A stretch of DNA of 64,000 bases from Escherichia coli (GTDB taxonomy: Bacteria > Pseudomonadota > Gammaproteobacteria > Enterobacterales > Enterobacteriaceae). The notes under the pieces were generated by a model, which did no database searches, had not been told where the DNA came from, and saw only the letters and a list, made by a program, of their open reading frames with translations. The stretch is from assembly GCF_001677475.2 (NCBI RefSeq), contig NZ_CP015229.1; one strand, 5' to 3'. The first letter of the stretch is position 1. Each line of letters starts with the position of its first letter. The translations under genes were made by a program, and so were the position numbers. Positions 2 to 63,060 of this stretch are shown here, piece after piece.

Positions 2-784
2 ATTAACAGCAACGATAAAGATTATCAAGAATACATTGCCACCTACCCATTGCCAATAGATAGCGCAACACATAAAAAAGTCAAAAAATTAAGACCAGTC
101 TGCATCTCCCACTCTCAACATGGTAACTCGATCACTATTACAACAACTTATCTTCGTCCATTCAAAGAAAGAAGTGCAATTGAAACAAATACACTAAGCC
201 CAGCAACACAAAAAGAACTCAATTGTTTTGATGAAATAATTGGAATAAAAGATAGATACATCCAATGTTTTGACACAATTACTTTTAACTATGTTTCCGG
301 CGAAATAACATTTGAAATCGACATGTGTACAAATCTTAACCATAATGAATTGGAGCGCGCATCAACAAGATATCGTAGAATATTAATGTACCTTTTCCAT
401 AAAGAGAATTCATATCACGTCGCCTTCATTAGAAAAAATATATTTACTGCTATCGATAAACTTTACAAATCTGCCGATGGTACCATTTTAAAACTTGGGC
501 ATGCCACAGGAACAGGCTCAGTAAAAGAAGAAAAAATGAGAAAGAGAAAAGATGATTTAAGGAAGGAAAAATATCATGCCGCAGGCTTAGCGGCAATTGG
601 AGGAAAAACTAATAACTTTAGTATTTCTAAACAATGGAATGGAGCACACAATAACATTTTAACAATGCATGTACCCGGACATTTTTCTTTAATTTCATCC
701 TCGCTACCATTTATAAATCATGTTATAATCGAAGGGTGTGTTTGTAAATCAGATTATGAGTTATTGATGTCAAAGGTTTTCTAA
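2..784 (+). CDS. Hypothetical protein, 5'-truncated by window edge; first visible gene of AT-rich three-gene operon
   Basis: Reading frame is open from position 2 to stop at 782-784 (track ORF 50..784 begins at an internal TTG); stop abuts the ATG of the next gene; visibly AT-rich. Confidence 0.45.
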   Translation: MNSNDKDYQEYIATYPLPIDSATHKKVKKLRPVCISHSQHGNSITITTTYLRPFKERSAIETNTLSPATQKELNCFDEIIGIKDRYIQCFDTITFNYVSGEITFEIDMCTNLNHNELERASTRYRRILMYLFHKENSYHVAFIRKNIFTAIDKLYKSADGTILKLGHATGTGSVKEEKMRKRKDDLRKEKYHAAGLAAIGGKTNNFSISKQWNGAHNNILTMHVPGHFSLISSSLPFINHVIIEGCVCKSDYELLMSKVF

Positions 785-1177
785 ATGAATAAGCAGGAAA
801 TGAAAGATATCATACAACATTCTTTTGCTACCGACAGCAAAGTTGGTTTTGCATGTATGAATATTTATCATTACCTGCTTAATGAAGATCTGGATAATTT
901 AAAATATATAACATTCAATAACTTGCAAAAAGTCAGTAATGTTGATCAAAGTATCCTTTACGAGGCAATTACTTATCTATCTGGAGAAAAAGCACCAATA
1001 TTATCAATCGGATACGAATATATTGATGGTGATGACATTTTTGAAATCTCTCAAGATGAGTTAAGCAAAATATATTCAGAAGGAACATTTTATTTCGATG
1101 GCAAACCAGTCCTCAATTGGCAGTCGAAAGTTTACATTTACTTTTATGCATCAGAGTTCTGGAAAGGCCTAGAATGA
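785..1177 (+). CDS. Hypothetical acidic protein (130 aa)
   Basis: ORF 785..1177; ATG directly follows the upstream stop, and its own stop overlaps the next ATG (ATGA), so it is translationally coupled on both sides. Confidence 0.5.
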   Translation: MNKQEMKDIIQHSFATDSKVGFACMNIYHYLLNEDLDNLKYITFNNLQKVSNVDQSILYEAITYLSGEKAPILSIGYEYIDGDDIFEISQDELSKIYSEGTFYFDGKPVLNWQSKVYIYFYASEFWKGLE

Positions 1178-1839
1178 TGGATAATCAGAATAATTTTACG
1201 TTAGAATCGCTGAAGTTCGCAGCGTCATTCGATGAGAGCGCAGCACGCCTTTACCGAAGAATTACATGCAATTCATACGATAAATTTATTGAAATGTTTT
1301 ATATTGACTTAGAAAAAACAATCAGATTGATTGAAAAAAATGCAAGCTTAATGCAAAACGATGGAGAAGACCGTTTATCTATAGAAATAATTAATATACT
1401 AATTGGCTTCGGATATGATTCTGGTCATGATAATTATATAAATGGGCACTCAGACATTGTTGTAAGTTTCAAAAACTACACATGGATTGGAGAGGCTAAA
1501 ATTCATAGCTCATACGACTATTTAATGGAAGGATTCCATCAATTATGCTCTCGTTACTCCACAGGAAGTGAAGATGATTGTCAAGGAGGATTAATAATTT
1601 ATGTGAAAAGCAACAATGCATTAGATGTCGTAGAGAAATGGAAAAAAACATTAACCTCTAAAAAAGATGACTTTGAAGATTTTTATTTATCCGATTGCAA
1701 AACAAGAGAAAAGTTGAGCTTTTACTCTAGCCACAAACACCCTAAATCTGGATTACCATACAAAGTAAGACATTTCGCTGTAATATTGGGATTTGCACCT
1801 AAAGACAAAAGTGCGAGAACAGCAAAGTCCAGAAAATAA
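1174..1839 (+). CDS. Hypothetical protein with PD-(D/E)xK-like motif (putative nuclease fold)
   Basis: Internal ATG of track ORF 1117..1839 overlaps the upstream stop (ATGA). Protein has GEDRLSIEI ... GHSDIVVSF ... IGEAKI, an E / hydrophobic-D / ExK spacing typical of PD-(D/E)xK nucleases; assigned by eye only. Confidence 0.45.
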   Translation: MMDNQNNFTLESLKFAASFDESAARLYRRITCNSYDKFIEMFYIDLEKTIRLIEKNASLMQNDGEDRLSIEIINILIGFGYDSGHDNYINGHSDIVVSFKNYTWIGEAKIHSSYDYLMEGFHQLCSRYSTGSEDDCQGGLIIYVKSNNALDVVEKWKKTLTSKKDDFEDFYLSDCKTREKLSFYSSHKHPKSGLPYKVRHFAVILGFAPKDKSARTAKSRK

Positions 1840-1869: not shown

Positions 1870-2217
1870 TTATCTATTTAGAATACACATAATACCATCA
1901 ATAAATCCAAGTGCAGTTTGCAACTCCTTTCTAATAGTTCCATCCGAGCATTTCCGCTTCTTTGCGATTGTACGGAGTGAAATCCCGATAACAAAGTGAG
2001 CAATGATCAGCTCATATTCTTCTGGTTTATATTTCCGCAACCGGGCCACACATCCATCAATCATAATTCCTTCATCATCATCGCACTGGAGACGTGACTT
2101 TTTACCGTGTGGTAGAAGCCCCTTGAAACCAGCCGCTATCGGCTGCCAGTCGACACCACTATTTTCTGCTGCAGCCCAAGCCCCCCAACGATCTAAAGCT
2201 TCGTACATATCACGCAT
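1870..2217 (-). CDS. Phage antitermination protein Q-like
   Basis: 115 aa beginning MRDMYEALDRWGAWAAAENSGVDW...GFKGLLP...SRLQCDDDEGIMIDGCVARL, which resembles the Q family of lambdoid/Qin-type prophages; it is the last gene of the minus-strand early-right operon. Confidence 0.55.
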   Translation of the reverse strand: MRDMYEALDRWGAWAAAENSGVDWQPIAAGFKGLLPHGKKSRLQCDDDEGIMIDGCVARLRKYKPEEYELIIAHFVIGISLRTIAKKRKCSDGTIRKELQTALGFIDGIMCILNR

Positions 2218-4747: not shown

Positions 4748-5662
4748 TCAGAATGTCAATTTGTCACTGGATTTACCGAATTTGTCAGACATGGCTCCCA
4801 GGCCAGACAGGACATCGACCTGTCGCTGTCGCCCACCTCCGGGAGCGGCTGGTTGTTGCCAGAAGTCTTCGAAGTGACGATCGGGGCCAAAGAACGTCGC
4901 TGCCTGCTTCACGAACTGTGTGCCGGTATTTCCTGTAGCACGTACCCAGGCGGCATAGCGTTTCACGCCATCAAGCATGGTTTCGGGTGTCACACCTTCC
5001 CTGATACGGGCTTTCCAGGCTTTGAAAGCAGCTGACTTGGAATTGCCACCAGCACGTTTGGGATATTCCTGCCAGGCCTGTTCAAATTCCGGTGAATATT
5101 CCTGTCGGGCAGAACGTGCTGGTGCAGACGCGTCAGCGGATGCACCAATAGTGTTTTTACTCTCTGTAGTATTCTCTGAAGTAATCTCTGTTGTATTCTC
5201 TGTAAGATCGAAATTGGTTTTCCCTTCTCCGCGGCGAGGGGTTTCCCGTGTCCGCGGTGAAGGCTTTCCCTCCTCCGCGAAATTGGGTTTTACAGTTTCC
5301 CGAAAACGGGTTTCCCCATTTCGGGAAAACTGATTGTTTTCATTGATAATTTCATTAAGGCGCTCACAATCTATACGGTAGAACATTTTGTGCTCAAGAC
5401 GCTTGTTGGTTTCAACCAAAATGCCTCTGGACACAAGATGCTTACGCGCTACAGCCTGTTGTTCAAATGTAAGTCCGGTTTCGTGTTGTATCTCTTCACG
5501 CGTTTTATGTACGCCTTCCGCTGCATGTGCTTTATCCTGCCAGTAAAAAATCTGACCAAAGAAAATAACAGCGTGCGGACTTCCCATGTATTTAACGAGC
5601 CCAGGGTAATAAGCAACCGGATGTCCAAAATCGAGCAGAAGATCAGACGGACGCATAGCCAC
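4748..5662 (-). CDS. Phage replication initiation protein (O-like replisome organiser)
   Basis: 304-aa ORF immediately upstream of the DnaC/DnaB-like pair; contains internal iteron-like direct repeats; start may be MAMRPS (5662) or MRPS (5656). Confidence 0.6.
   Translation of the reverse strand: MAMRPSDLLLDFGHPVAYYPGLVKYMGSPHAVIFFGQIFYWQDKAHAAEGVHKTREEIQHETGLTFEQQAVARKHLVSRGILVETNKRLEHKMFYRIDCERLNEIINENNQFSRNGETRFRETVKPNFAEEGKPSPRTRETPRRGEGKTNFDLTENTTEITSENTTESKNTIGASADASAPARSARQEYSPEFEQAWQEYPKRAGGNSKSAAFKAWKARIREGVTPETMLDGVKRYAAWVRATGNTGTQFVKQAATFFGPDRHFEDFWQQPAAPGGGRQRQVDVLSGLGAMSDKFGKSSDKLTF
5168..5205. repeat. Short direct repeats (ATTCTCTG-like, three copies) inside the O-like gene
   Basis: gtATTCTCTGaagtaATCTCTGttgtATTCTCTGtaag; encodes the repetitive TENTTEITSENTTES stretch. 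Confidence 0.45.
5214..5329. repeat. Iteron array (about five ~23-bp direct repeats); candidate phage replication origin inside the initiator gene
   Basis: Repeats GGTTTTCCCTTCTCCGCGGCGA / GGGGTTTCCCGTGTCCGCGGTGAA / GGCTTTCCCTCCTCCGCGAAATT / GGGTTTTACAGTTTCCCGAAAAC / GGGTTTCCCCATTTCGGGAAAAC; this mirrors the lambda ori-within-O arrangement. Confidence 0.5.
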
Positions 5663-5876
5663 CTCCCAGGCGTTTAAACATTTTTCCGGACTGAAACGCC
5701 ACCAGCGGATAACTCAGGGTATGAGTACGTCCCTGAACCTGGCAGACAACCTTCTGGCTTTCTGTATTGACCAGGCAAACCCGCAGAACGTGACCGTTGC
5801 TGGTGGTGAACCACTGCCCCACACGGGGGCAACGGTTGTATCGGTGATACAGGGAATTAACGACGCGGCGAATCAT
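5643..5876 (-). CDS. Hypothetical small protein (77 aa)
   Basis: ATG at 5874-5876 has a strong GGGAGG Shine-Dalgarno 7 nt upstream and overlaps the upstream stop (ATGA); lies just upstream of the O-like gene. Confidence 0.45.
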   Translation of the reverse strand: MIRRVVNSLYHRYNRCPRVGQWFTTSNGHVLRVCLVNTESQKVVCQVQGRTHTLSYPLVAFQSGKMFKRLGGGYASV

Positions 5877-6379
5877 GGGCGCGCCTCCCATTGATTACGG
5901 CGGAAAGCAGTGTGAGTCAGGCTGGTTTCGGCCTCATGGAATGCTTCAATGCAGCTCTCGTAGTACCGCATTGTGCGCAGACTTAACCCAAGCTGAAGCA
6001 TCATCAGACCATCAAGAGTTATGTAATAACCACGCAAAGAATCGCCATAAAGGTGATAAGTGCCGGGTATGAAATTACGGGTGAAAAACTCGCGCGAGCA
6101 GTTCAGATACTCGATTTTGTCGACGATATTCTGGTGCATGCGCTTGAAGTGGCAGGCAACATGCAGAGAGAAAATAACGGCCTTGCCGTTGACGGTCTCA
6201 ATTTTGAGGAATGGGTGAGTAGTGGTGGTAGTCATGGTGACAGCCCCGGTAGTCAGTTTGTTAGAAAACTCACCACCAAGGCTTTCCACGACCTTATAGG
6301 TGGTGAGACGTACAGGGGTGGAAATACCGGAGACTACCGAACCCGGCCCGACCGAAGTCGGCCCTGTACGCCCCACCAT
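5873..6379 (-). CDS. Hypothetical protein (start uncertain; C-terminal part of a long open frame)
   Basis: Frame is open from 7174 to 5873 but its upstream part overlaps the well-supported FinO-like gene; only the portion downstream of that gene is called. The stop overlaps the next ATG (ATGA); no convincing RBS was found at ATG 6379 or GTG 6472. Confidence 0.3.
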   Translation of the reverse strand: MVGRTGPTSVGPGSVVSGISTPVRLTTYKVVESLGGEFSNKLTTGAVTMTTTTTHPFLKIETVNGKAVIFSLHVACHFKRMHQNIVDKIEYLNCSREFFTRNFIPGTYHLYGDSLRGYYITLDGLMMLQLGLSLRTMRYYESCIEAFHEAETSLTHTAFRRNQWEARP

Positions 6380-6533
6380 AATTTGGGCGTAGCAATGCTC
6401 ATGACACGAAAAAACCGCATGAGCGCGGTTATGCTCAGTAATCAATTTCGGGTTTCCACGCCCGGCATCCACTTTACAAGATGCCTGAATAGTGTAACGT
6501 CCCGAAATTAAGGAATCAATGTTTTGATAAAAT

Positions 6534-6926
6534 TCAGCGATTAGACGCTTCTTTTCTACCCATATTAACTTTGAACAAGAGCTCCATACGACGAGTCCAG
6601 ATACCACGTTCTTTGAGTTGTGCTCTGGCTTCTTCGCGTTCAGATACGGATGTTCTGACAATACGATTTCCCGCCAGATTGCGGCGATATTCTCCAAACG
6701 CGACTGACTGAAGGTATGAATCTGAGCTTTTGTACTGATAGATGGCTCTTCGAAGGCTGTTTTTGTATTCCTTAGGTATATGTCCGAGATCGGCAAAGAG
6801 CTCATGAACGATATCGTGAACAAGCGGAACCACTTTGTATGGAATAACAAAGAAGCTTTCTGGATAGCGTTCAGCCAATACTTTAATGATTTCTTTATTT
6901 GCAAGATGCCTTGCTTTTCTTCCCAT
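6534..6926 (-). CDS. FinO/ProQ-domain RNA chaperone-like protein
   Basis: KEIIKVLAERYPESF...PL...SLRRAIYQYKSSDSYLQSVAFGEYRRNLAGN...EREEARAQLKE aligns by eye with the ProQ N-terminal FinO domain (KEVIAFLAERFPHCF...RSALRLYTSSWRYLYGV...RVDLDGN...EHARKQLEE). Confidence 0.7.
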   Translation of the reverse strand: MGRKARHLANKEIIKVLAERYPESFFVIPYKVVPLVHDIVHELFADLGHIPKEYKNSLRRAIYQYKSSDSYLQSVAFGEYRRNLAGNRIVRTSVSEREEARAQLKERGIWTRRMELLFKVNMGRKEASNR

Positions 6927-6989
6927 ATACCATTCTCCATTACTCTAGATATCAGAATGATATATCCAGGTTTTTCAAGCAGTTCAAGC

Positions 6990-7163
6990 TTATGCTGGTG
7001 CTTCACACTCAACAAAATCACGACGAAACAACCACAGCGGGCTGAAGCATTCATGCGGATAACCATCACGCAGGTAAATAACCCGCTGTGTTTCAGGCTC
7101 CCAGCGTATAACGTGGACACGACGCCCCCTTCCGTCACGGAACCAGCGATTGAGTACTTGCAT
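6990..7163 (-). CDS. Hypothetical small protein (weak call)
   Basis: Short ORF between the Lar-like and FinO-like genes; ATG at 7163 lies 8 nt after the Lar-like stop; RBS is weak. Confidence 0.2.
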   Translation of the reverse strand: MQVLNRWFRDGRGRRVHVIRWEPETQRVIYLRDGYPHECFSPLWLFRRDFVECEAPA

Positions 7164-7170
7164 TTGGATT

Positions 7171-7389
7171 TCATTCCACACCTACCCCTTCACGCTGATT
7201 CCAGTCATGAACAGCACGTTCTTTCGAATCAGGAATCTGGTTTGCGTTACAGCAAGTACATGCGACGTAATAACCATCATCGCCATCCAGAAAATATTTC
7301 ACCTCAATGAGTTGTACTTCCGGATTTCCGCAGAATGGGCAAGGTTTCAGCTCGACATCACCAGTTACACACGTCTTGATTTGCATCAT
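7171..7389 (-). CDS. Lar-family restriction alleviation protein (anti-restriction)
   Basis: ELKPCPFCG...GYYVACTCCNA...AVHDWNQR matches the Lar/restriction-alleviation zinc-ribbon signature (KPCPFCG ... C-x-x-C ... WN-R). Confidence 0.65.
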   Translation of the reverse strand: MMQIKTCVTGDVELKPCPFCGNPEVQLIEVKYFLDGDDGYYVACTCCNANQIPDSKERAVHDWNQREGVGVE

Positions 7390-8240
7390 TTGTTCTCCTG
7401 TAAAAGATTCGCAAGCTCAGTGTTATGGGTAAACAGCCCATCCCATGTTTTCTTCATCGGTAGTTCGCCGTTCAGATAATGGCGATATAACCAGGCAGCA
7501 CCTTTGGGCTTTAGTAACGGTTTAAAGGTGTCTCGCATTTCCCCATTTTCCTGCTCAACCCGGTTGTAGCGCTCCGTCAGATACTGATCACGTGCATACG
7601 CTTTTACACGCCAGCGTGGATACATAGCCTCCGGACGGTCGTCATACAGCCAGTTACGCTCTTCAAGGAACGCATTAATCTGACGAGTGTTTACACCGTT
7701 GAGTTGTTTGCAGAACTGCACAGGAGTGATGCCATCGGCGAGATGACTTTCGAGTTTGCTGATGTAGCGAGCCTGACGCTCTGCATACCCGAGAGCAAGG
7801 CGCTCGGATTTTTTGGCTTCAATCCACGCTTCAGCAGCAGCGATCGGATCGTCAAAGTCTGGAATAGTGTTTGAAGAAGGCGTTGCTTTACGAAAATACG
7901 CCTGCTCCATTTTTTCGAAGAACGACCAGGCCTCGTCTGTATCGACGATTTTTGACATGCGGGCAGCGCCGCGTTCTGTCCAGAGGACAAGTGATGTTGT
8001 ATGTTTATTAACCGACTCGCTAAAAGATAGTCGGAAAGATTTCAGCTCATCACTGCTGATTTTGAAAAAGTGTTTACCCTCAACGAAACGATCTTCATTT
8101 CGAATGTAGTTCTGTTGTATACGGATTGGCGTTGTTCCATATCCCGCCGCCAACGTTTCGGTGGTAACTACACGTACTCCCTGCCACTCAATAACTGGCA
8201 AGTTTTCAGGGTTGACTAATTTTTGTTTATTGATCATCAT
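7386..8240 (-). CDS. Phage antirepressor-like protein (ORF6N/KilA-N-type N-terminal domain)
   Basis: N-terminal IEWQGVRVVTTETLAAGYG...IRNEDRFVEGKHFFKI is characteristic of the ORF6N antirepressor domain; located immediately downstream of the Cro-like gene. Confidence 0.6.
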   Translation of the reverse strand: MMINKQKLVNPENLPVIEWQGVRVVTTETLAAGYGTTPIRIQQNYIRNEDRFVEGKHFFKISSDELKSFRLSFSESVNKHTTSLVLWTERGAARMSKIVDTDEAWSFFEKMEQAYFRKATPSSNTIPDFDDPIAAAEAWIEAKKSERLALGYAERQARYISKLESHLADGITPVQFCKQLNGVNTRQINAFLEERNWLYDDRPEAMYPRWRVKAYARDQYLTERYNRVEQENGEMRDTFKPLLKPKGAAWLYRHYLNGELPMKKTWDGLFTHNTELANLLQENK

Positions 8241-8316
8241 GAAATCCCCTTACTAATCAGAATAAGTCGGGCTGACGGAGTGCGGCCCGGCTTTTCTTTT
8301 TTCGTTCAGTAACCGT

Positions 8317-8583
8317 TCATCGCATGGACATTTCTGATGAATCACTCTGCCCATCTTCCGTGTGCGCTAAGCTTGGATGTGCTCCACGCTTGTTTTTGCG
8401 CGAGCGGTTCTTGTACAGGTTCAGATCGCACTTCAGAGCTCCATCAGTTAGTTTCTCAAGCTCCAGAGCACGCCCTTTAGGTACAATTGCTCCCCATCGA
8501 GTAACAGCCACTTGCGATACATCTAAAGCGCGCGCAACCTTTGCTTTAGTTCCAAAAAACGCAACTGCGTCTTGTGTTTTCAT
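8317..8583 (-). CDS. Cro/YdaS-like HTH DNA-binding protein
   Basis: 88 aa with N-terminal HTH (KAKVARALDVSQVAVTRW); divergent from the XRE repressor gene across a ~95-bp intergenic region. Confidence 0.55.
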   Translation of the reverse strand: MKTQDAVAFFGTKAKVARALDVSQVAVTRWGAIVPKGRALELEKLTDGALKCDLNLYKNRSRKNKRGAHPSLAHTEDGQSDSSEMSMR

Positions 8584-8678
8584 ACCACCTCCAAATAACT
8601 TATGTTTATCTTACTTCTATAACCATAGTTAGTTCAAGTTAACATATATTAATGATTCAACTAGTAGAGAGGATCCCC
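8584..8678. promoter_or_regulatory. Divergent promoter/operator region of the prophage immunity switch (predicted)
   Basis: AT-rich spacer between divergent HTH genes containing partially symmetric AGTTCAAGTTAAC / TTCAACTAGTA elements; operator sites not defined. Confidence 0.3.
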
Positions 8679-9065
8679 ATGGAAATAAGCGAACGCATTA
8701 CTATGAGACGCAAAGAGTTAGGACTTACCAAACTAGCCCTAGCCAAGACGCTAGGGCTGTCAGGTGTCAGCATATTGAAGTGGGAAAATGGGCAAAACGA
8801 GCCAAGCGGGAAAAACCTTTTCGCTCTCAGTGACGCTCTAAAATGCTCCCCGGCATGGTTGCTTTTTGGTGACGAAGATAAGTCTCCGACGCCAGTTGAT
8901 GAACTTCCAACAGAATTAGACGAGCAGCAAACTCAACTACTGAGTTTATTCAATCAACTACCAGACTCGGAAAAAACCATATTAATCAATGAGATATCAG
9001 CAAGAGTTGAGAACTTCAACAAACTATTTGAAGAATTACTAAGGGTCAGAAAACAACGCAAATAA
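8679..9065 (+). CDS. XRE-family HTH repressor (CI-like, short, no peptidase domain)
   Basis: MEISERITMRRKELGLTKLALAKTLGLSGVSILKWENG has an HTH_XRE signature; GAGAGGA RBS before ATG 8679; no S24/LexA-like autocleavage domain is visible. Confidence 0.6.
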   Translation: MEISERITMRRKELGLTKLALAKTLGLSGVSILKWENGQNEPSGKNLFALSDALKCSPAWLLFGDEDKSPTPVDELPTELDEQQTQLLSLFNQLPDSEKTILINEISARVENFNKLFEELLRVRKQRK

Positions 9066-9070
9066 TTATA

Positions 9071-9104
9071 AAACGGCAATCTATTCAGTAGGTTGCCGTT
9101 TTCT
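9071..9104 (+). terminator. Rho-independent terminator downstream of the repressor gene
   Basis: Hairpin CGGCAATCTATTCAGTAGGTTGCCG followed by TTTTC. Confidence 0.45.
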
Positions 9105-9209
9105 CACCCCCAAAAAACTAACTTTTATTAATTTTTACTTGCCCTAAAAGTTATCTTTAGTTATTGTTTGTGGCGTTTAGTTAATGCAACAAAAGTTATA
9201 GACGAAATT

Positions 9210-9668
9210 ATGAACACTCAAAATGGCGAACTTGACTTATTTGACATAGCAGACGAATCACAGATTTTGAACGATTTACTCTCAGTTATTGCATCCGTAA
9301 TCACACATGCAAGCAACGAAATAAACGAAATTGAATCGTGCATGAGCATTGCCTGGAGGATTAGCTCTTCAATTAATGAAAACTTACTTAAGCTCACCAG
9401 AACAGCACAAGCTAAATCAGCGCGTTCATGCAAACAAAATTTAGCTATTAATTCACAGAATCGTCTTCGCCACCAACGCGAAGCCTGCGGCTTAACAACC
9501 GCCGAACTCGCCAGGCTGCTCGATCTCGATGAAGAAATTATCATCCAGTGGGAGAGCGGAGAGTATGAACCAACTATCAGTATGCTTATCCCACTGGCAA
9601 ATGTTCTTGGTTGCGACCCGATATGGCTGTTAACTGGTAAACCAACAGGTGGGGATACTTGCGCATGA
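9210..9668 (+). CDS. Hypothetical protein with C-terminal XRE-type HTH domain
   Basis: C-terminal GLTTAELARLLDLDEEIIIQWESGEYEPTISMLIPLANVLGCDPIWLL is a typical HTH_XRE; the N-terminal ~90 aa are unassigned; start codon uncertain (track ORF begins at 9168). Confidence 0.5.
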   Translation: MNTQNGELDLFDIADESQILNDLLSVIASVITHASNEINEIESCMSIAWRISSSINENLLKLTRTAQAKSARSCKQNLAINSQNRLRHQREACGLTTAELARLLDLDEEIIIQWESGEYEPTISMLIPLANVLGCDPIWLLTGKPTGGDTCA

Positions 9669-9907
9669 AAAACTGTGATGCTTACCACATATGTCTCATT
9701 GGTGAATTGCTTGATTGCATACAAAAAAGCGCTGAGCGCAATAATAAAAATATAACATACGGTAATCTGGCAATAATTTCAGAGGATATTAAGAGCATCG
9801 CTCTTAAATTCAAGAGCGATGCGAACATTGACGACACTATTTACGCTTATCTTGCGAAAATAGTTGACGGATCCAAAAACCAGCCTCTGGATGAGGACCG
9901 TCAGTAA
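9665..9907 (+). CDS. Hypothetical small protein (80 aa)
   Basis: ATG overlaps the upstream stop (ATGA); its 3' end overlaps a convergent minus-strand ORF. Confidence 0.35.
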   Translation: MKNCDAYHICLIGELLDCIQKSAERNNKNITYGNLAIISEDIKSIALKFKSDANIDDTIYAYLAKIVDGSKNQPLDEDRQ

Positions 9908-10064
9908 AAAATTCATTTGATGAACATGAGAAGTGCTTCATAAAATTTACTTTATCTTCAGGTGAAACCACCTGACGAATTAATGCAGAGATAGCGACTT
10001 TGTGCCACATTAATTCTTTTTTGAGCGCTGAAATTTCTTTTTCAAGTTGCTCTTCGTTAATCAT
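9837..10064 (-). CDS. Hypothetical small coiled-coil protein (75 aa)
   Basis: ATG at 10062-10064 is preceded by a GGAGGA Shine-Dalgarno; the protein (MINEEQLEKEISALKKEL...) is predicted helical; it overlaps the 3' end of the plus-strand ORF 9665..9907. Confidence 0.4.
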   Translation of the reverse strand: MINEEQLEKEISALKKELMWHKVAISALIRQVVSPEDKVNFMKHFSCSSNEFFTDGPHPEAGFWIRQLFSQDKRK

Positions 10065-10244: not shown

Positions 10245-10610
10245 ATGAAAAAGTTCGAAAACATAACTGTTCTCCATGTTGATGACTTTGATTATACAAA
10301 CCCGGAACTTCTCCCGGAGGTTGTAAAGGCAATAGATGTTGCCGATATAGTGATTAGAGGAAAGAGAATTGTCAAAAACAGGCTCGCATGCACTTCAGGA
10401 GCAATGACAGAAACAACCTCACAACAAGATGATTATGAAGGCATTTGTCTGGAGCCTGACTCATTTGCGGTAAATGTTTATCATTTATTGCATGCAACAC
10501 AGGTATTACATATGTCAAGTAATCACGAAACAAAAACACTTGGCAGCGAAATTCTGAATTTTGCATGTGAATATGCAAAAGCTGCTGCCGAAAAAGAATT
10601 AGCGCAATAA
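10245..10610 (+). CDS. Hypothetical protein (121 aa)
   Basis: ORF with GAGGAA RBS upstream of the ATG; no recognised motifs. Confidence 0.45.
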   Translation: MKKFENITVLHVDDFDYTNPELLPEVVKAIDVADIVIRGKRIVKNRLACTSGAMTETTSQQDDYEGICLEPDSFAVNVYHLLHATQVLHMSSNHETKTLGSEILNFACEYAKAAAEKELAQ

Positions 10611-13707: not shown

Positions 13708-13917
13708 GTGGGGCTGGATTGCGTACCTATATCAACCTACTGCCGCAACGCAGGAGAAACGGTTGATGCCGTTAACAAACGGATACAAAGAGGAATATGG
13801 AAAGAAGGGGTACATGTATTAAAAGTCGACGGAGTTAAAGAACGTTGGGTCGACTTAATGGAGATTACAAAATGGGCAAGAAAGAACAAGGATCATTATC
13901 TCTCCCCAGAGGAGTAA
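13708..13917 (+). CDS. Excisionase-like protein (putative Xis)
   Basis: 69-aa ORF with GTG start and GAGGTG RBS, immediately upstream of and overlapping the integrase gene; small winged-helix-like protein typical of Xis. Confidence 0.45.
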   Translation: MGLDCVPISTYCRNAGETVDAVNKRIQRGIWKEGVHVLKVDGVKERWVDLMEITKWARKNKDHYLSPEE

Positions 13918-15044
13918 CTATTCGCCAGCATAAAACTGGCAGCACCATGGTTATCACTTTTACATATAAAGGGGTTCTGTGTCGGGAGCCCCTCTCCAGA
14001 ATGGAAGTAAATGCGCGCGGTGTGAAGTACGCCGAGCGTCTGCTGGGAGAAATAAAAAATCAGATTATCGATGGTACCTTCGAATATGCAAAATACTTCC
14101 CCAACTCCCAAAAACTGGAGCTGTTCGGGGGAGTGAAAAAAAACAAAAATATAAAATCTTACCTGGATGAATACCTGATTATCTGCCAGAACCGTAACCT
14201 GTCACCATCGACAATTAAAGGTTATGAAAAATGCCTGTCGGCGCTGTCAGCACTGCACAAATTTCATGTATCAGAACTGACGCCAGCAGTACTCAAAAAC
14301 TGGATCGCCAGCAGAAAAACAAAACTGAAAACGATCCGCAATAATCTTTCATTTCTGCGCAGCGCCATAGATGAAGCGGTAACAGATGGTTTGTTAACAA
14401 TAAATCCTGTCACGCTAGTCAGCGCCAGCCGATATCACGTATTAGACAACACACCAGGCAGTGATGATTACGAGGTCGATCCTTTTACGCCAGCGGAGAC
14501 AGCAGCAATCTATGACGCCTGTCATTACCCGGAATGGCGAAATCTGTTTCGCTTCGCCTTTAATACCGGGCTGCGCAGCTCAGAATTGTGCGCGCTGCGC
14601 TGGACAGATATAGACTTCATCGACAACACAGCGCATGTCCAGACTGCAAGCGTAGTCGGGGTAATCAAAAGCACCAAAACAAAAGCCGGCACTCGCAAAG
14701 TACAACTGAACAGCGAAGCGCTGGCGGCTCTTCAGGCACAAAAGCCCTACACAGCGCTAAAAAGCGACTTTATATTCAGCGATCCGAAAACTCGCGCCCC
14801 TTGGGCAAACGCGGACGCGATTCGAAAAAAAGCCTGGCTACCAACCCTTAAAAAGGCTGGAGTACGCTATCGCAATCCGTACCAGACACGCCACACGTTC
14901 GCCACTAGGCACATTAGCCAGGGCGTTAATCTGTTCTGGCTTGCTGGTCAGATGGGGCATAAAGGACCGGAAATGCTGTTCAGACATTACGGTTCTTACC
15001 TTGCAGAATACGATGGAAAAACGGCGATTTCTGCAACCCCGTGA
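13872..15044 (+). CDS. Phage tyrosine integrase (IntR/IntS-like)
   Basis: C-terminal catalytic region with RHTFATRHISQGVNLFWLAGQMGHKGPEMLFRHYGSYL (R/H/Y motif region); N-terminal arm-binding-like domain; GGAG RBS before ATG 13872. Confidence 0.8.
   Translation: MGKKEQGSLSLPRGVTIRQHKTGSTMVITFTYKGVLCREPLSRMEVNARGVKYAERLLGEIKNQIIDGTFEYAKYFPNSQKLELFGGVKKNKNIKSYLDEYLIICQNRNLSPSTIKGYEKCLSALSALHKFHVSELTPAVLKNWIASRKTKLKTIRNNLSFLRSAIDEAVTDGLLTINPVTLVSASRYHVLDNTPGSDDYEVDPFTPAETAAIYDACHYPEWRNLFRFAFNTGLRSSELCALRWTDIDFIDNTAHVQTASVVGVIKSTKTKAGTRKVQLNSEALAALQAQKPYTALKSDFIFSDPKTRAPWANADAIRKKAWLPTLKKAGVRYRNPYQTRHTFATRHISQGVNLFWLAGQMGHKGPEMLFRHYGSYLAEYDGKTAISATP

Positions 15045-61919: not shown

Positions 61920-63060
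<1,141 letters not shown>

Follow-up and report, generated by a model that had tools for sequence, protein, structure and literature searches.

How is a lambdoid prophage induced when its repressor is too short to cleave itself? The question is raised by the immunity region at positions 7386 to 9668 of a 64,000-nucleotide stretch of Escherichia coli DNA (contig NZ_CP015229.1, assembly GCF_001677475.2), which is called here, at its full length, the window. The int-proximal half of a lambdoid prophage makes up the first ~15.3 kb of the window; this int-to-Q half (~1..15.3 kb) is the part that the window holds, and the late genes lie beyond its left edge. The region contains a short repressor gene (cI), a divergent cro gene followed by a putative antirepressor gene (ant) and, on the other side of cI, a second gene for a helix-turn-helix (HTH) protein, referred to as HTH2. 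The four genes and the terminator of an earlier reading from the sequence alone were all recovered at the positions given there. With moderate confidence we regard the region as the central immunity locus in a lambdoid, P27-like E. coli prophage that belongs to the type known from DicA/DicC in Qin and from GfoR in Gifsy. For induction we propose, at slightly better than even probability, that ant is a portable gene controlled by the repressor and that the trigger acts in trans or arises stochastically.

The cI gene (8679..9065, plus strand) encodes a protein of 128 amino acids (aa), and its start agrees with the PGAP call in a 99.5%-identical copy. The protein displays an HTH_3 domain at residues 10-61 (Pfam), scores 177 bits with the NCBIfam model NF007257 for DicA (cut-off 101) and is 56% identical to DicA from E. 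coli K-12 over 126 aa, both domains being covered. In profile searches against PDB, its N-terminal HTH resembles the N-terminal domain of P22 C2 (E 6e-16, ~50% identity), and the overall architecture is that of a P22 C2-like N-terminal HTH joined to a DicA-like C-terminal domain. No Peptidase_S24 match was obtained at E ≤ 0.1 with Pfam, the protein ends 60 aa past the HTH, and an Ala-Gly dipeptide, the cleavage site of such repressors, does not occur in the 128-aa sequence. A cryptic peptidase was sought in CI by Pfam, NCBIfam and PDB searches and ruled out, in agreement with a sequence-only reading that had described a short XRE repressor devoid of an S24 peptidase. As CI is short and has no S24 domain, its inactivation through RecA-stimulated self-cleavage is excluded, as far as can be judged from the protein sequence. 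By the same features CI is assigned to a known class, the non-cleavable lambdoid repressors of the DicA/GfoR type. In this class, DicA is the short non-cleavable repressor of Qin, which represses dicC, encoding the Cro analogue, and the downstream dicB promoter; it is relieved by the small protein Rem, and spontaneous switching depends on DicC (PMC10448788). Lemire and colleagues assigned DicA to one class with the Gifsy repressors, whose inactivation is brought about by small antirepressors under LexA control (PMC3121763).

LexA boxes were searched for throughout the 64 kb. The only CTGT-N8-ACAG site is located at 63043..63058, at recA (20-mer box 63041..63060), and no further site within 3 mismatches of the 20-mer LexA consensus was present in the window. 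In a weight-matrix scan the recA box reached 24.4 bits and the runner-up, at 11.3 bits, fell below all training sites; the recN boxes and the Gifsy-1 dinI/gftA box, employed as positive controls, were recovered. A LexA box in or near the immunity region was thus ruled out by exact pattern, by the 3-mismatch consensus and by the weight matrix, and these systematic scans agree with the inspection by eye of the sequence-only reading, which had identified no box other than that at recA. Homologues of Rem or GftA were not detected by tblastn in the window or in its relatives, including the complete Stx2e-converting prophage L016, which carries an identical CI. A hidden Markov model (HMM) of Rem, made from 68 sequences, recovered Rem itself (E 2e-54) and gave no other match with E below 1, neither in the visible half of the prophage nor in a complete relative. 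The 85-aa open reading frame (ORF) between dnaB and Q was considered as a Rem-like antirepressor and dropped, its product being a coiled-coil protein unrelated to Rem and present under any CI type. In L016, a single LexA-like site, AACTGTATGTTATTGCAGTA (18.5 bits, L016 28666..28685), is found inside the tail-sheath gene; it is the only one in that prophage and probably fortuitous.

The cro gene (8317..8583, minus strand) is divergent from cI, as had been described, and encodes an 88-aa protein of the P22-Cro/DicC type (Pfam P22_Cro E 9e-19; DicC model 56.9 bits). The right operator region (OR, 8584..8678) between both genes contains AGTTA/TAACT half-sites at 8596, 8627 and 8637. By eye, a candidate for the cro promoter PR was located on the minus strand (TTGAAC at 8637-8632, an 18-nt spacer and TAAGAT at 8613-8608), which has 8/12 consensus positions and lies under the threshold of the promoter scan, and the AGTTA sites sit on its -35 and start site. 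Also by eye, TATATT at 8645-8650 on the plus strand is a candidate -10 for PRM, the -35 being poor. Downstream of cI an inverted repeat at 9070..9102 folds on the plus strand into a 15-bp stem of -18.8 kcal/mol (z = -8.1), followed by UUUUCU, and on the minus strand with -14.2 kcal/mol (z = -5.0), followed by a U-rich tract. As it folds on both strands and has U tracts on both, it is taken as a bidirectional intrinsic terminator, which bears out the earlier claim that a terminator follows the repressor gene and that a new transcription unit begins behind it.

This unit opens with a left operator/promoter region (OL, 9112..9209, plus strand), equivalent to dicBp of Qin or PL of lambda and recognised by its motif sites. 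A motif scan located AGTTA/TAACT at 9119, 9149, 9159, 9179 and 9194, and these sites span a candidate leftward promoter before HTH2 (plus strand; TTGCCC at 9139-9144, a 17-nt spacer and TATTGT at 9162-9167). The scan for operator repeats that the sequence-only reading had called for gave an array of 8 copies in 239 bp. Of these, 3 lie between cro and cI and 5 separate the cI terminator from HTH2, against an expectation of 0.41 by the window-wide rate and of 1.05 in composition-matched shuffles; 8 copies were reached in 0/5,000 shuffles. The alignment of OR with OL scored 74, as against 53±5 in shuffles (~4 standard deviations above). A comparable arrangement is present in Qin, where the word TGTTAGTCAT is common to the dicC-dicA gap (dicCp) and to dicBp. 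In 3 relatives with repressors of the S24 type, an operator word from OR likewise recurs upstream of the homologous HTH gene, and in some S24-type relatives near-consensus promoters (TTGACA, 17 nt, TAATAT) stand beside the recurring OR words. A palindromic P22-like operator, TTAAC-N4-GTTAA, has one good copy only (8639-8652) and was dropped in favour of the array of AGTTA half-sites, which has the statistics behind it. Since the AGTTA sites are common to OR and OL, HTH2 is predicted to head a repressor-controlled early-left operon; from this motif layout it would be the first gene of that operon, in the position of lambda N or of ydfA in Qin.

The ant gene (7386..8240, minus strand) occupies the position of cII in the rightward operon and encodes a 284-aa protein, which was assigned from Pfam and PHROG matches. 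It contains an ORF6N domain (Pfam E 2e-20, 73.3 bits) and a KilAC/ANT domain (29.9 bits, cut-off 25.3), and it matches PHROG 63, 'anti-repressor Ant', with E 7e-47, so that its membership in antirepressor families, claimed in the sequence-only reading, stands. The promoter scan showed no promoter-like minus-strand site between cro and ant, and neither Mnt or Arc nor a separate promoter or LexA box for ant was found in our scans. Placed 3' of cro and lacking a separate promoter, ant should be silenced by the repressor and should not be the first event of induction.

The distribution of ant was compared with that of cI in 5,426 complete E. coli genomes, ant being counted at a coverage of at least 80%. 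The cI allele was present in 5 genomes, ant in 13 and both in 0. The exact mosaic of the window is absent from the complete E. coli genomes in the collection, and draft assemblies with this mosaic exist, for example L012. In strain MFDS1022581, a 96.5%-identical Ant is encoded behind a different cro and an S24-type cI, and in phiP27 and other phages with cleavable repressors of 218-234 aa, Ant-like genes directly follow cro. Conversely, a 100%-identical CI occurs in prophages converting their hosts to production of Shiga toxin 2e (Stx2e), and in these cro is followed by genes for two small unknown proteins and a helicase-primase module; in the complete Stx2e prophage L016, no ant-like gene after cro and no C4 RNA were detected. 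A further prophage with the same CI (L011) has a pRha-type Ant after cro, for which no similarity to the Ant of the window was detectable. Ant-like genes of 3 N-terminal types (ORF6N, pRha and KilA-N) follow cro in 3/4 contexts of the CI family, and a conserved CI-binding domain common to the Ant variants paired with CI was sought and not found. Judged by this distribution, ant is a portable early-gene cassette, and a dedicated partnership with CI is not indicated. Induction through the ORF6N antirepressor, as the sequence-only reading had it, is not borne out by its repressor-controlled position, by the lack of co-occurrence in the survey or by the identical CI that is found without ant. The Stx2e prophages with identical CI (L007-L010, L013, L016; STEC306-308 and others) are integrated beside ssrA and share their operator regions, as well as HTH2, with the window.

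HTH2 (9210..9668, plus strand) encodes a protein of 152 aa with HTH_3 at residues 86-140, in accordance with the earlier description of a second protein with a C-terminal XRE HTH and an unassigned N-terminus. For the N-terminal ~85 aa no relatives were found in Pfam, NCBIfam or PDB; the profile search of this region against PDB, which had been suggested as a check, returned HTH matches only. An AlphaFold model of the domain consists of two long helices of low confidence (pLDDT 50-60). Homologues of HTH2 are abundant in E. coli prophages, where they have no functional name, and they combine a near-invariant HTH, in 1-2 copies, with N-terminal types that are unrelated or barely related. Each CI type has its own HTH2 N-terminal type (6 loci, 5 CI types). 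DNA similarity to phiP27 and other phages starts exactly at the HTH coding sequence of HTH2, and on the other side the match to the STEC308 immunity module begins at window 8358, the junction near 8358 leaving cro with a C-terminal tail derived from the ant-side module. The swapped immunity cassette thus extends from inside cro (~8358) to the middle of HTH2 (~9462), and since cro is joined in its C-terminal third and HTH2 where N-terminal domain and HTH meet, both genes appear as chimeras of an immunity-specific and a common part. Two alternatives had been offered for the second HTH protein, a second regulator or a toxin-antitoxin-like or defence-associated element. The first stands, HTH2 being always behind the left operator region; the second does not, as no toxin or defence match extends beyond the HTH. 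The variants with two HTH copies probably correspond to the 'Clade VIII atypical CI' described in a survey of Stx phages (PMC8951638), and in every locus examined a separate bona fide cI is encoded upstream of the two-HTH variant.

Two small genes adjoin HTH2. The 82-aa orf82 (9659..9907, plus strand; phrog_23054, of unknown function) overlaps the end of HTH2 by 10 nt; close relatives either lack it or have an unrelated 66-aa ORF in its place, and neither similarity of orf82 to HTH2 nor a match of orf82 to a toxin family was found. The 75-aa orf75 (9837..10064, minus strand; phrog_20080) is convergent with the HTH2 operon, overlaps the 3' end of orf82 by ~70 nt and is preceded by the best promoter-like site of the region, TTGAGA-17-GATAAT at 10185-10157 (10/12). 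A little further on, a 121-aa protein is encoded (10245..10610, plus strand). Over its C-terminal 47 aa it shares 45% identity (E 3e-10) with the N-terminal domain that second-HTH proteins have in another immunity type (P0069), the copy in the window having no HTH.

From homology and motif layout the following sequence of events would be expected. In lysogeny, CI would bind the AGTTA operators at OR and OL and keep both early operons off, and the promoter from which cI itself is probably transcribed, good in its -10 and poor in its -35, would depend on an activator; the cI transcript would end at the bidirectional terminator. As there is no S24 domain, no LexA box and no antirepressor of the Rem or GftA type in the visible 15 kb or in the complete relative, the primary trigger is presumably encoded outside the immunity region, most likely as an antirepressor acting in trans from another element, or else consists of a stochastic or stress-driven loss of CI that is locked in by Cro. 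A lock-in of the Cro type after repressor loss is known for DicA/DicC (PMC10448788). Once repression is lifted, the cro promoter would fire and Cro, Ant, Lar and the ProQ/FinO-domain protein would be made in rightward direction, followed by the Rha ORF, gated by C4 RNA, and the replication genes. In leftward direction the HTH2 regulator would come first, as an early regulator that is predicted to be silent in the lysogen and made at once on derepression, and the int-side genes would follow. If Ant is a true antirepressor, it might reinforce induction by feed-forward or act on repressors of co-resident prophages as does FsoA, which is governed by the repressor of Fels-1, dispensable for induction of Fels-1 and active on another prophage (PMC3121763). 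Translation of the Rha ORF, and probably also of the coupled ORF and the replication genes, would be gated by isrK/C4.

This account has to be weighed against others in which CI is inactivated by a product of known kind or by one encoded in the region itself. That Ant is the dedicated inactivator of CI and drives induction is suggested by the inability of CI to self-cleave, by bona fide antirepressor-family domains and by the Ant-like genes that follow cro in three of the four contexts of the CI family, and P22-type Ant proteins inactivate C2-like repressors. However, ant is placed 3' of a CI-repressed promoter and has neither promoter nor LexA box of its own, a nearly identical Ant serves behind S24-cleavable repressors, ant and this CI were not found together in the survey, Stx2e phages that have no ant function with the identical CI, and the dissimilar Ant of L011 leaves no conserved CI-binding domain; the proposal is therefore considered improbable. 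A small LexA-controlled antirepressor as in Gifsy, encoded in the late half or in another prophage and leaving Ant and the early genes as bystanders, is documented for GfoR, GtgR and GfhR, and DicA is relieved by Rem (PMC3121763, PMC10448788). Such antirepressors work across prophages, and only half of this prophage is visible. Against it, the canonical place for such a gene, which is flanked by the replication genes and Q, has only the 85-aa coiled-coil ORF, found under any CI type, and the complete prophage with identical CI contains neither a Rem or GftA homologue nor a LexA box at a regulatory gene, its one 18.5-bit site being inside the tail-sheath gene. We consider this possibility unlikely, and continue to prefer a repressor-controlled ant with a trigger in trans or a stochastic one.

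Both remaining proposals concern HTH2. Its N-terminal domain, alone or with an adjacent small ORF, might inactivate CI, in analogy to the modules of a transcription factor and a small ORF that bring about SOS-independent induction in Vibrio and Aeromonas phages (PMC10432266). The presence of an XRE factor beside small ORFs, one of them counter-oriented and with a promoter-like site, fits this published logic, and the N-terminal type tracks the CI type while the HTH is near-invariant. Physical linkage explains this co-variation equally well, though, as the recombination joint lies in the conserved HTH coding sequence; moreover, HTH2 stands behind the left operators and should be repressed by CI, the same family occurs beside S24-cleavable repressors which need no such device, the small ORFs are not conserved, and the model of the N-terminal domain is of low confidence. 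An inactivator of this kind is accordingly rated very improbable. That HTH2 and orf82 form a toxin-antitoxin or defence module could be read from their 10-nt overlap, suggesting translational coupling, and from weak NCBIfam/PADLOC matches to HTH domains of the HipB, MqsA, CapH and RmrA types. Those matches cover the generic HTH only, whereas orf82 belongs to no toxin family and in close relatives is missing or exchanged for the 66-aa ORF. From the operator layout, repression would be expected in the lysogen, and such a module is considered extremely unlikely.

A bolder thought, to which we give little credence, is that HTH2 represents an uncharacterised family of immunity-linked early regulators of P27-like and Stx phages whose N-terminal domain, made of two helices and diverging fast, recognises a partner peculiar to the immunity type, for instance the cognate CI or Cro. 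If this were true, each immunity type would possess a private early anti-immunity or commitment factor, with the invariant HTH binding a site common to all; HTH2 could be the missing inactivation step for a non-cleavable CI of the DicA type, and free-standing N-terminal copies such as the 121-aa ORF at 10245..10610 would be decoys against other prophages.

Several points weigh against the preferred account of a controlled, portable ant and an external trigger. It is computational throughout, built from homology, motif layout and genomic association: the family assignments, motif statistics and genomic associations are observed, and the promoter positions, the repression of HTH2 and any activity of Ant are predictions. 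Operators and promoters were called by motif, and the promoter matches are weak, with 7-8/12 consensus positions. The LexA weight matrix was constructed from a hand-entered set of SOS boxes, the late half of the prophage is outside the window and a LexA-controlled antirepressor may be located there, and the Rem HMM failed to detect GftA, so that the search for small antirepressors was of limited reach. Given the Ant-like genes in 3/4 contexts, some function of Ant could still matter for the switch.

The identity of the inactivator is of consequence in that the identical repressor controls Stx2e-converting phages, so whatever inactivates CI sets the release of Shiga toxin in those strains. The adjacent antirepressor gene would have been the obvious candidate and is not tied to the repressor, and of the two routes by which short repressors are known to be inactivated, through small antirepressors under LexA control and through Rem, neither is detectable here. 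In a survey of the regulatory regions of Stx phages, repressors without peptidase domain were noted to be unexplored (PMC8951638). For annotation, the early region should be seen as modular, with an immunity cassette that swaps from inside cro to mid-HTH2, HTH2 as the predicted first leftward early gene, and 'Ash family' genes that run over the isrK/C4 RNA switch preceding the replication genes.

Among known systems Qin is similar in its repressor, which is 56% identical to CI, has no S24 domain and belongs to the DicA model that CI passes, in its divergent Cro of the DicC/P22-Cro type, and in one operator word common to the divergent promoter region and the promoter 3' of the repressor gene (PMC10448788). 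In contrast to the window, its operator word is TGTTAG-N6-CTAACA and not AGTTA-based, and its first leftward gene is ydfA and not an HTH regulator; the window has no rem homologue, and its prophage has intact int, replication and Q genes. With Gifsy-1/2/3 (GfoR, GtgR and GfhR; LexA-controlled GfoA, GftA and GfhA) the prophage shares a short non-cleavable lambdoid repressor, and FsoA of Fels-1, an antirepressor under the repressor of its own phage, matches the position of ant in the window (PMC3121763). Unlike in Gifsy, neither a LexA box nor dinI nor a GftA-like ORF is found in the window from the replication genes to Q, and its Ant is a 284-aa ORF6N/KilAC protein whereas Gifsy-type antirepressors have ~70 aa. 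The immC/immI regions of P22 (c2/cro; mnt-arc-ant-sar) are similar in the N-terminal domain of CI, in P22_Cro and in an Ant of the KilAC family. In the window, though, Mnt, Arc and a separate ant promoter are missing and ant is inside the rightward early operon, and CI has no S24 domain as present in C2.

Antisense RNAs are a further trait of the regions compared. As in immI of P1 (c4-icd-ant) and in N15 anti-immunity, a C4 RNA pairs in the window with targets, one of them over a Shine-Dalgarno sequence, and shows compensatory changes, and an isrK-C4 tandem is also known from isrK-orf45-anrP of Gifsy-1 (PMC4825925). In distinction to P1, N15 and Gifsy-1, what is gated in the window would be a 120-aa Rha-domain protein and the replication genes and not icd-ant or AnrP. 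The ant gene of the window, which is not under C4, shares an 83-nt stretch at 81% with STM2616 (anrP position) of Gifsy-1. The prophages closest in layout are phiP27 and phages carrying Stx1a, Stx2a or Stx2e, which share the gene order Rha/C4, Ant-like gene, cro, cI, an HTH2-family gene, small ORFs, SPFH, DUF5406, DUF4222 and xis/int, and phiP27 DNA is 98% identical to the window from the HTH2 C-terminus onward. The phiP27-related phages mostly differ in an S24-cleavable CI of 218-234 aa, whereas the window has a cassette of the DicA type. To the transcription-factor/small-ORF modules (PMC10432266) the layout is only loosely similar, orf75 being convergent and not divergent.

The isrK/C4 module is located upstream of the replication genes on the minus strand. 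An isrK-like RNA gene (6408..6484; Rfam RF01394, 53.4 bits, gathering score 50) has a promoter-like site (TTGATT at 6519-6514, a 17-nt spacer and TACACT at 6496-6491) and its own terminator, and a C4 antisense RNA gene follows at 6296..6383 (Rfam RF01695, 81.9 bits, full length with positions 1-87 of 87). In 5 loci, C4 covaries through its loop 2 and its 3' element with two downstream targets; the pairing exists in 4 specificities, all fully compensated, and one target lies over the Shine-Dalgarno region of the Rha-domain ORF (5873..6235, minus strand, 120 aa). The Rha domain (Pfam Phage_pRha) scores 28.5 bits, just under the cut-off of 29.9, and there is no KilAC domain. A 77-aa ORF (5643..5876, minus strand) has an ATGA overlap with the Rha ORF and is followed by the replication genes. 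The isrK-C4 tandem also precedes STM2616, in the position of anrP, in Gifsy-1. The module follows the replication-side genes under any CI type and is absent from the Stx2e relative; being independent of CI type and missing there, it is not a dedicated inactivator of CI.

Directly upstream of isrK/C4, a ProQ/FinO-domain gene (6534..6926, minus strand; Pfam ProQ E 2e-13) is present in the window and in L006 and absent from several relatives, and a functional link of its product to the adjacent RNAs is possible. A 433-aa ORF at 5873..7174 (minus strand) was rejected as an open-frame artefact, since it runs over the two RNA genes as well as the genes for the ProQ-domain protein and a DUF4222 protein. 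In general, ORFs of 210-555 aa annotated by PGAP as 'Ash family protein' or 'transcriptional regulator' cross the isrK and C4 genes, for example 5873..7174 (minus strand) in the window, 4309..4971 in L002 and 166..825 in L015. Their N-terminal 'Phage_ASH' Pfam match may be a translated RNA region, and dual coding across the isrK/C4 region is possible.

Between cro and ant, a candidate antisense RNA gene over the ribosome-binding site of ant is indicated on the plus strand (8212..8303) by a promoter-like site, TTGACT-17-CATCAT at 8212-8240, which overlaps the ant start codon, and by a hairpin at 8264..8293 that precedes a U-run and folds with -21.3 kcal/mol (z -2.5, as against z -0.4 on the minus strand). 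From its folding and U-run the hairpin would be a good terminator for plus-strand RNA only. The candidate RNA would have ~55 nt (8247-8303) and be complementary to the ribosome-binding site of ant. All 5 loci aligned have the same sequence here, which leaves no covariation to judge it by. In P22, the small antisense RNA sar reportedly covers the ribosome-binding site of ant, as described in Genes & Development in 1987, and the candidate has a similar layout. A sar homologue was sought and no Rfam match to it was obtained, so that the likeness is one of layout alone. At the other end of ant, its stop codon is overlapped by a lar-like restriction-alleviation gene (7171..7389, minus strand; Pfam Lar_restr_allev E 2e-11).

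Of the remaining prophage genes, Q (1870..2217), the gene for an O-like initiator (4748..5662), and those for a DnaB-like helicase and a DnaC-like loader are on the minus strand, and the tyrosine integrase gene (13845..15044, plus strand) adjoins the gene of an AIDA-type autotransporter. Downstream of Q and on the opposite strand, three co-oriented ORFs occupy 50..1839 (plus strand), which in the full-length relatives L005 and L012 encode 350, 130 and 221 aa. They belong to no Pfam family and have marginal PADLOC matches only, and might represent a moron, or cargo for defence, where Q and the late genes meet.

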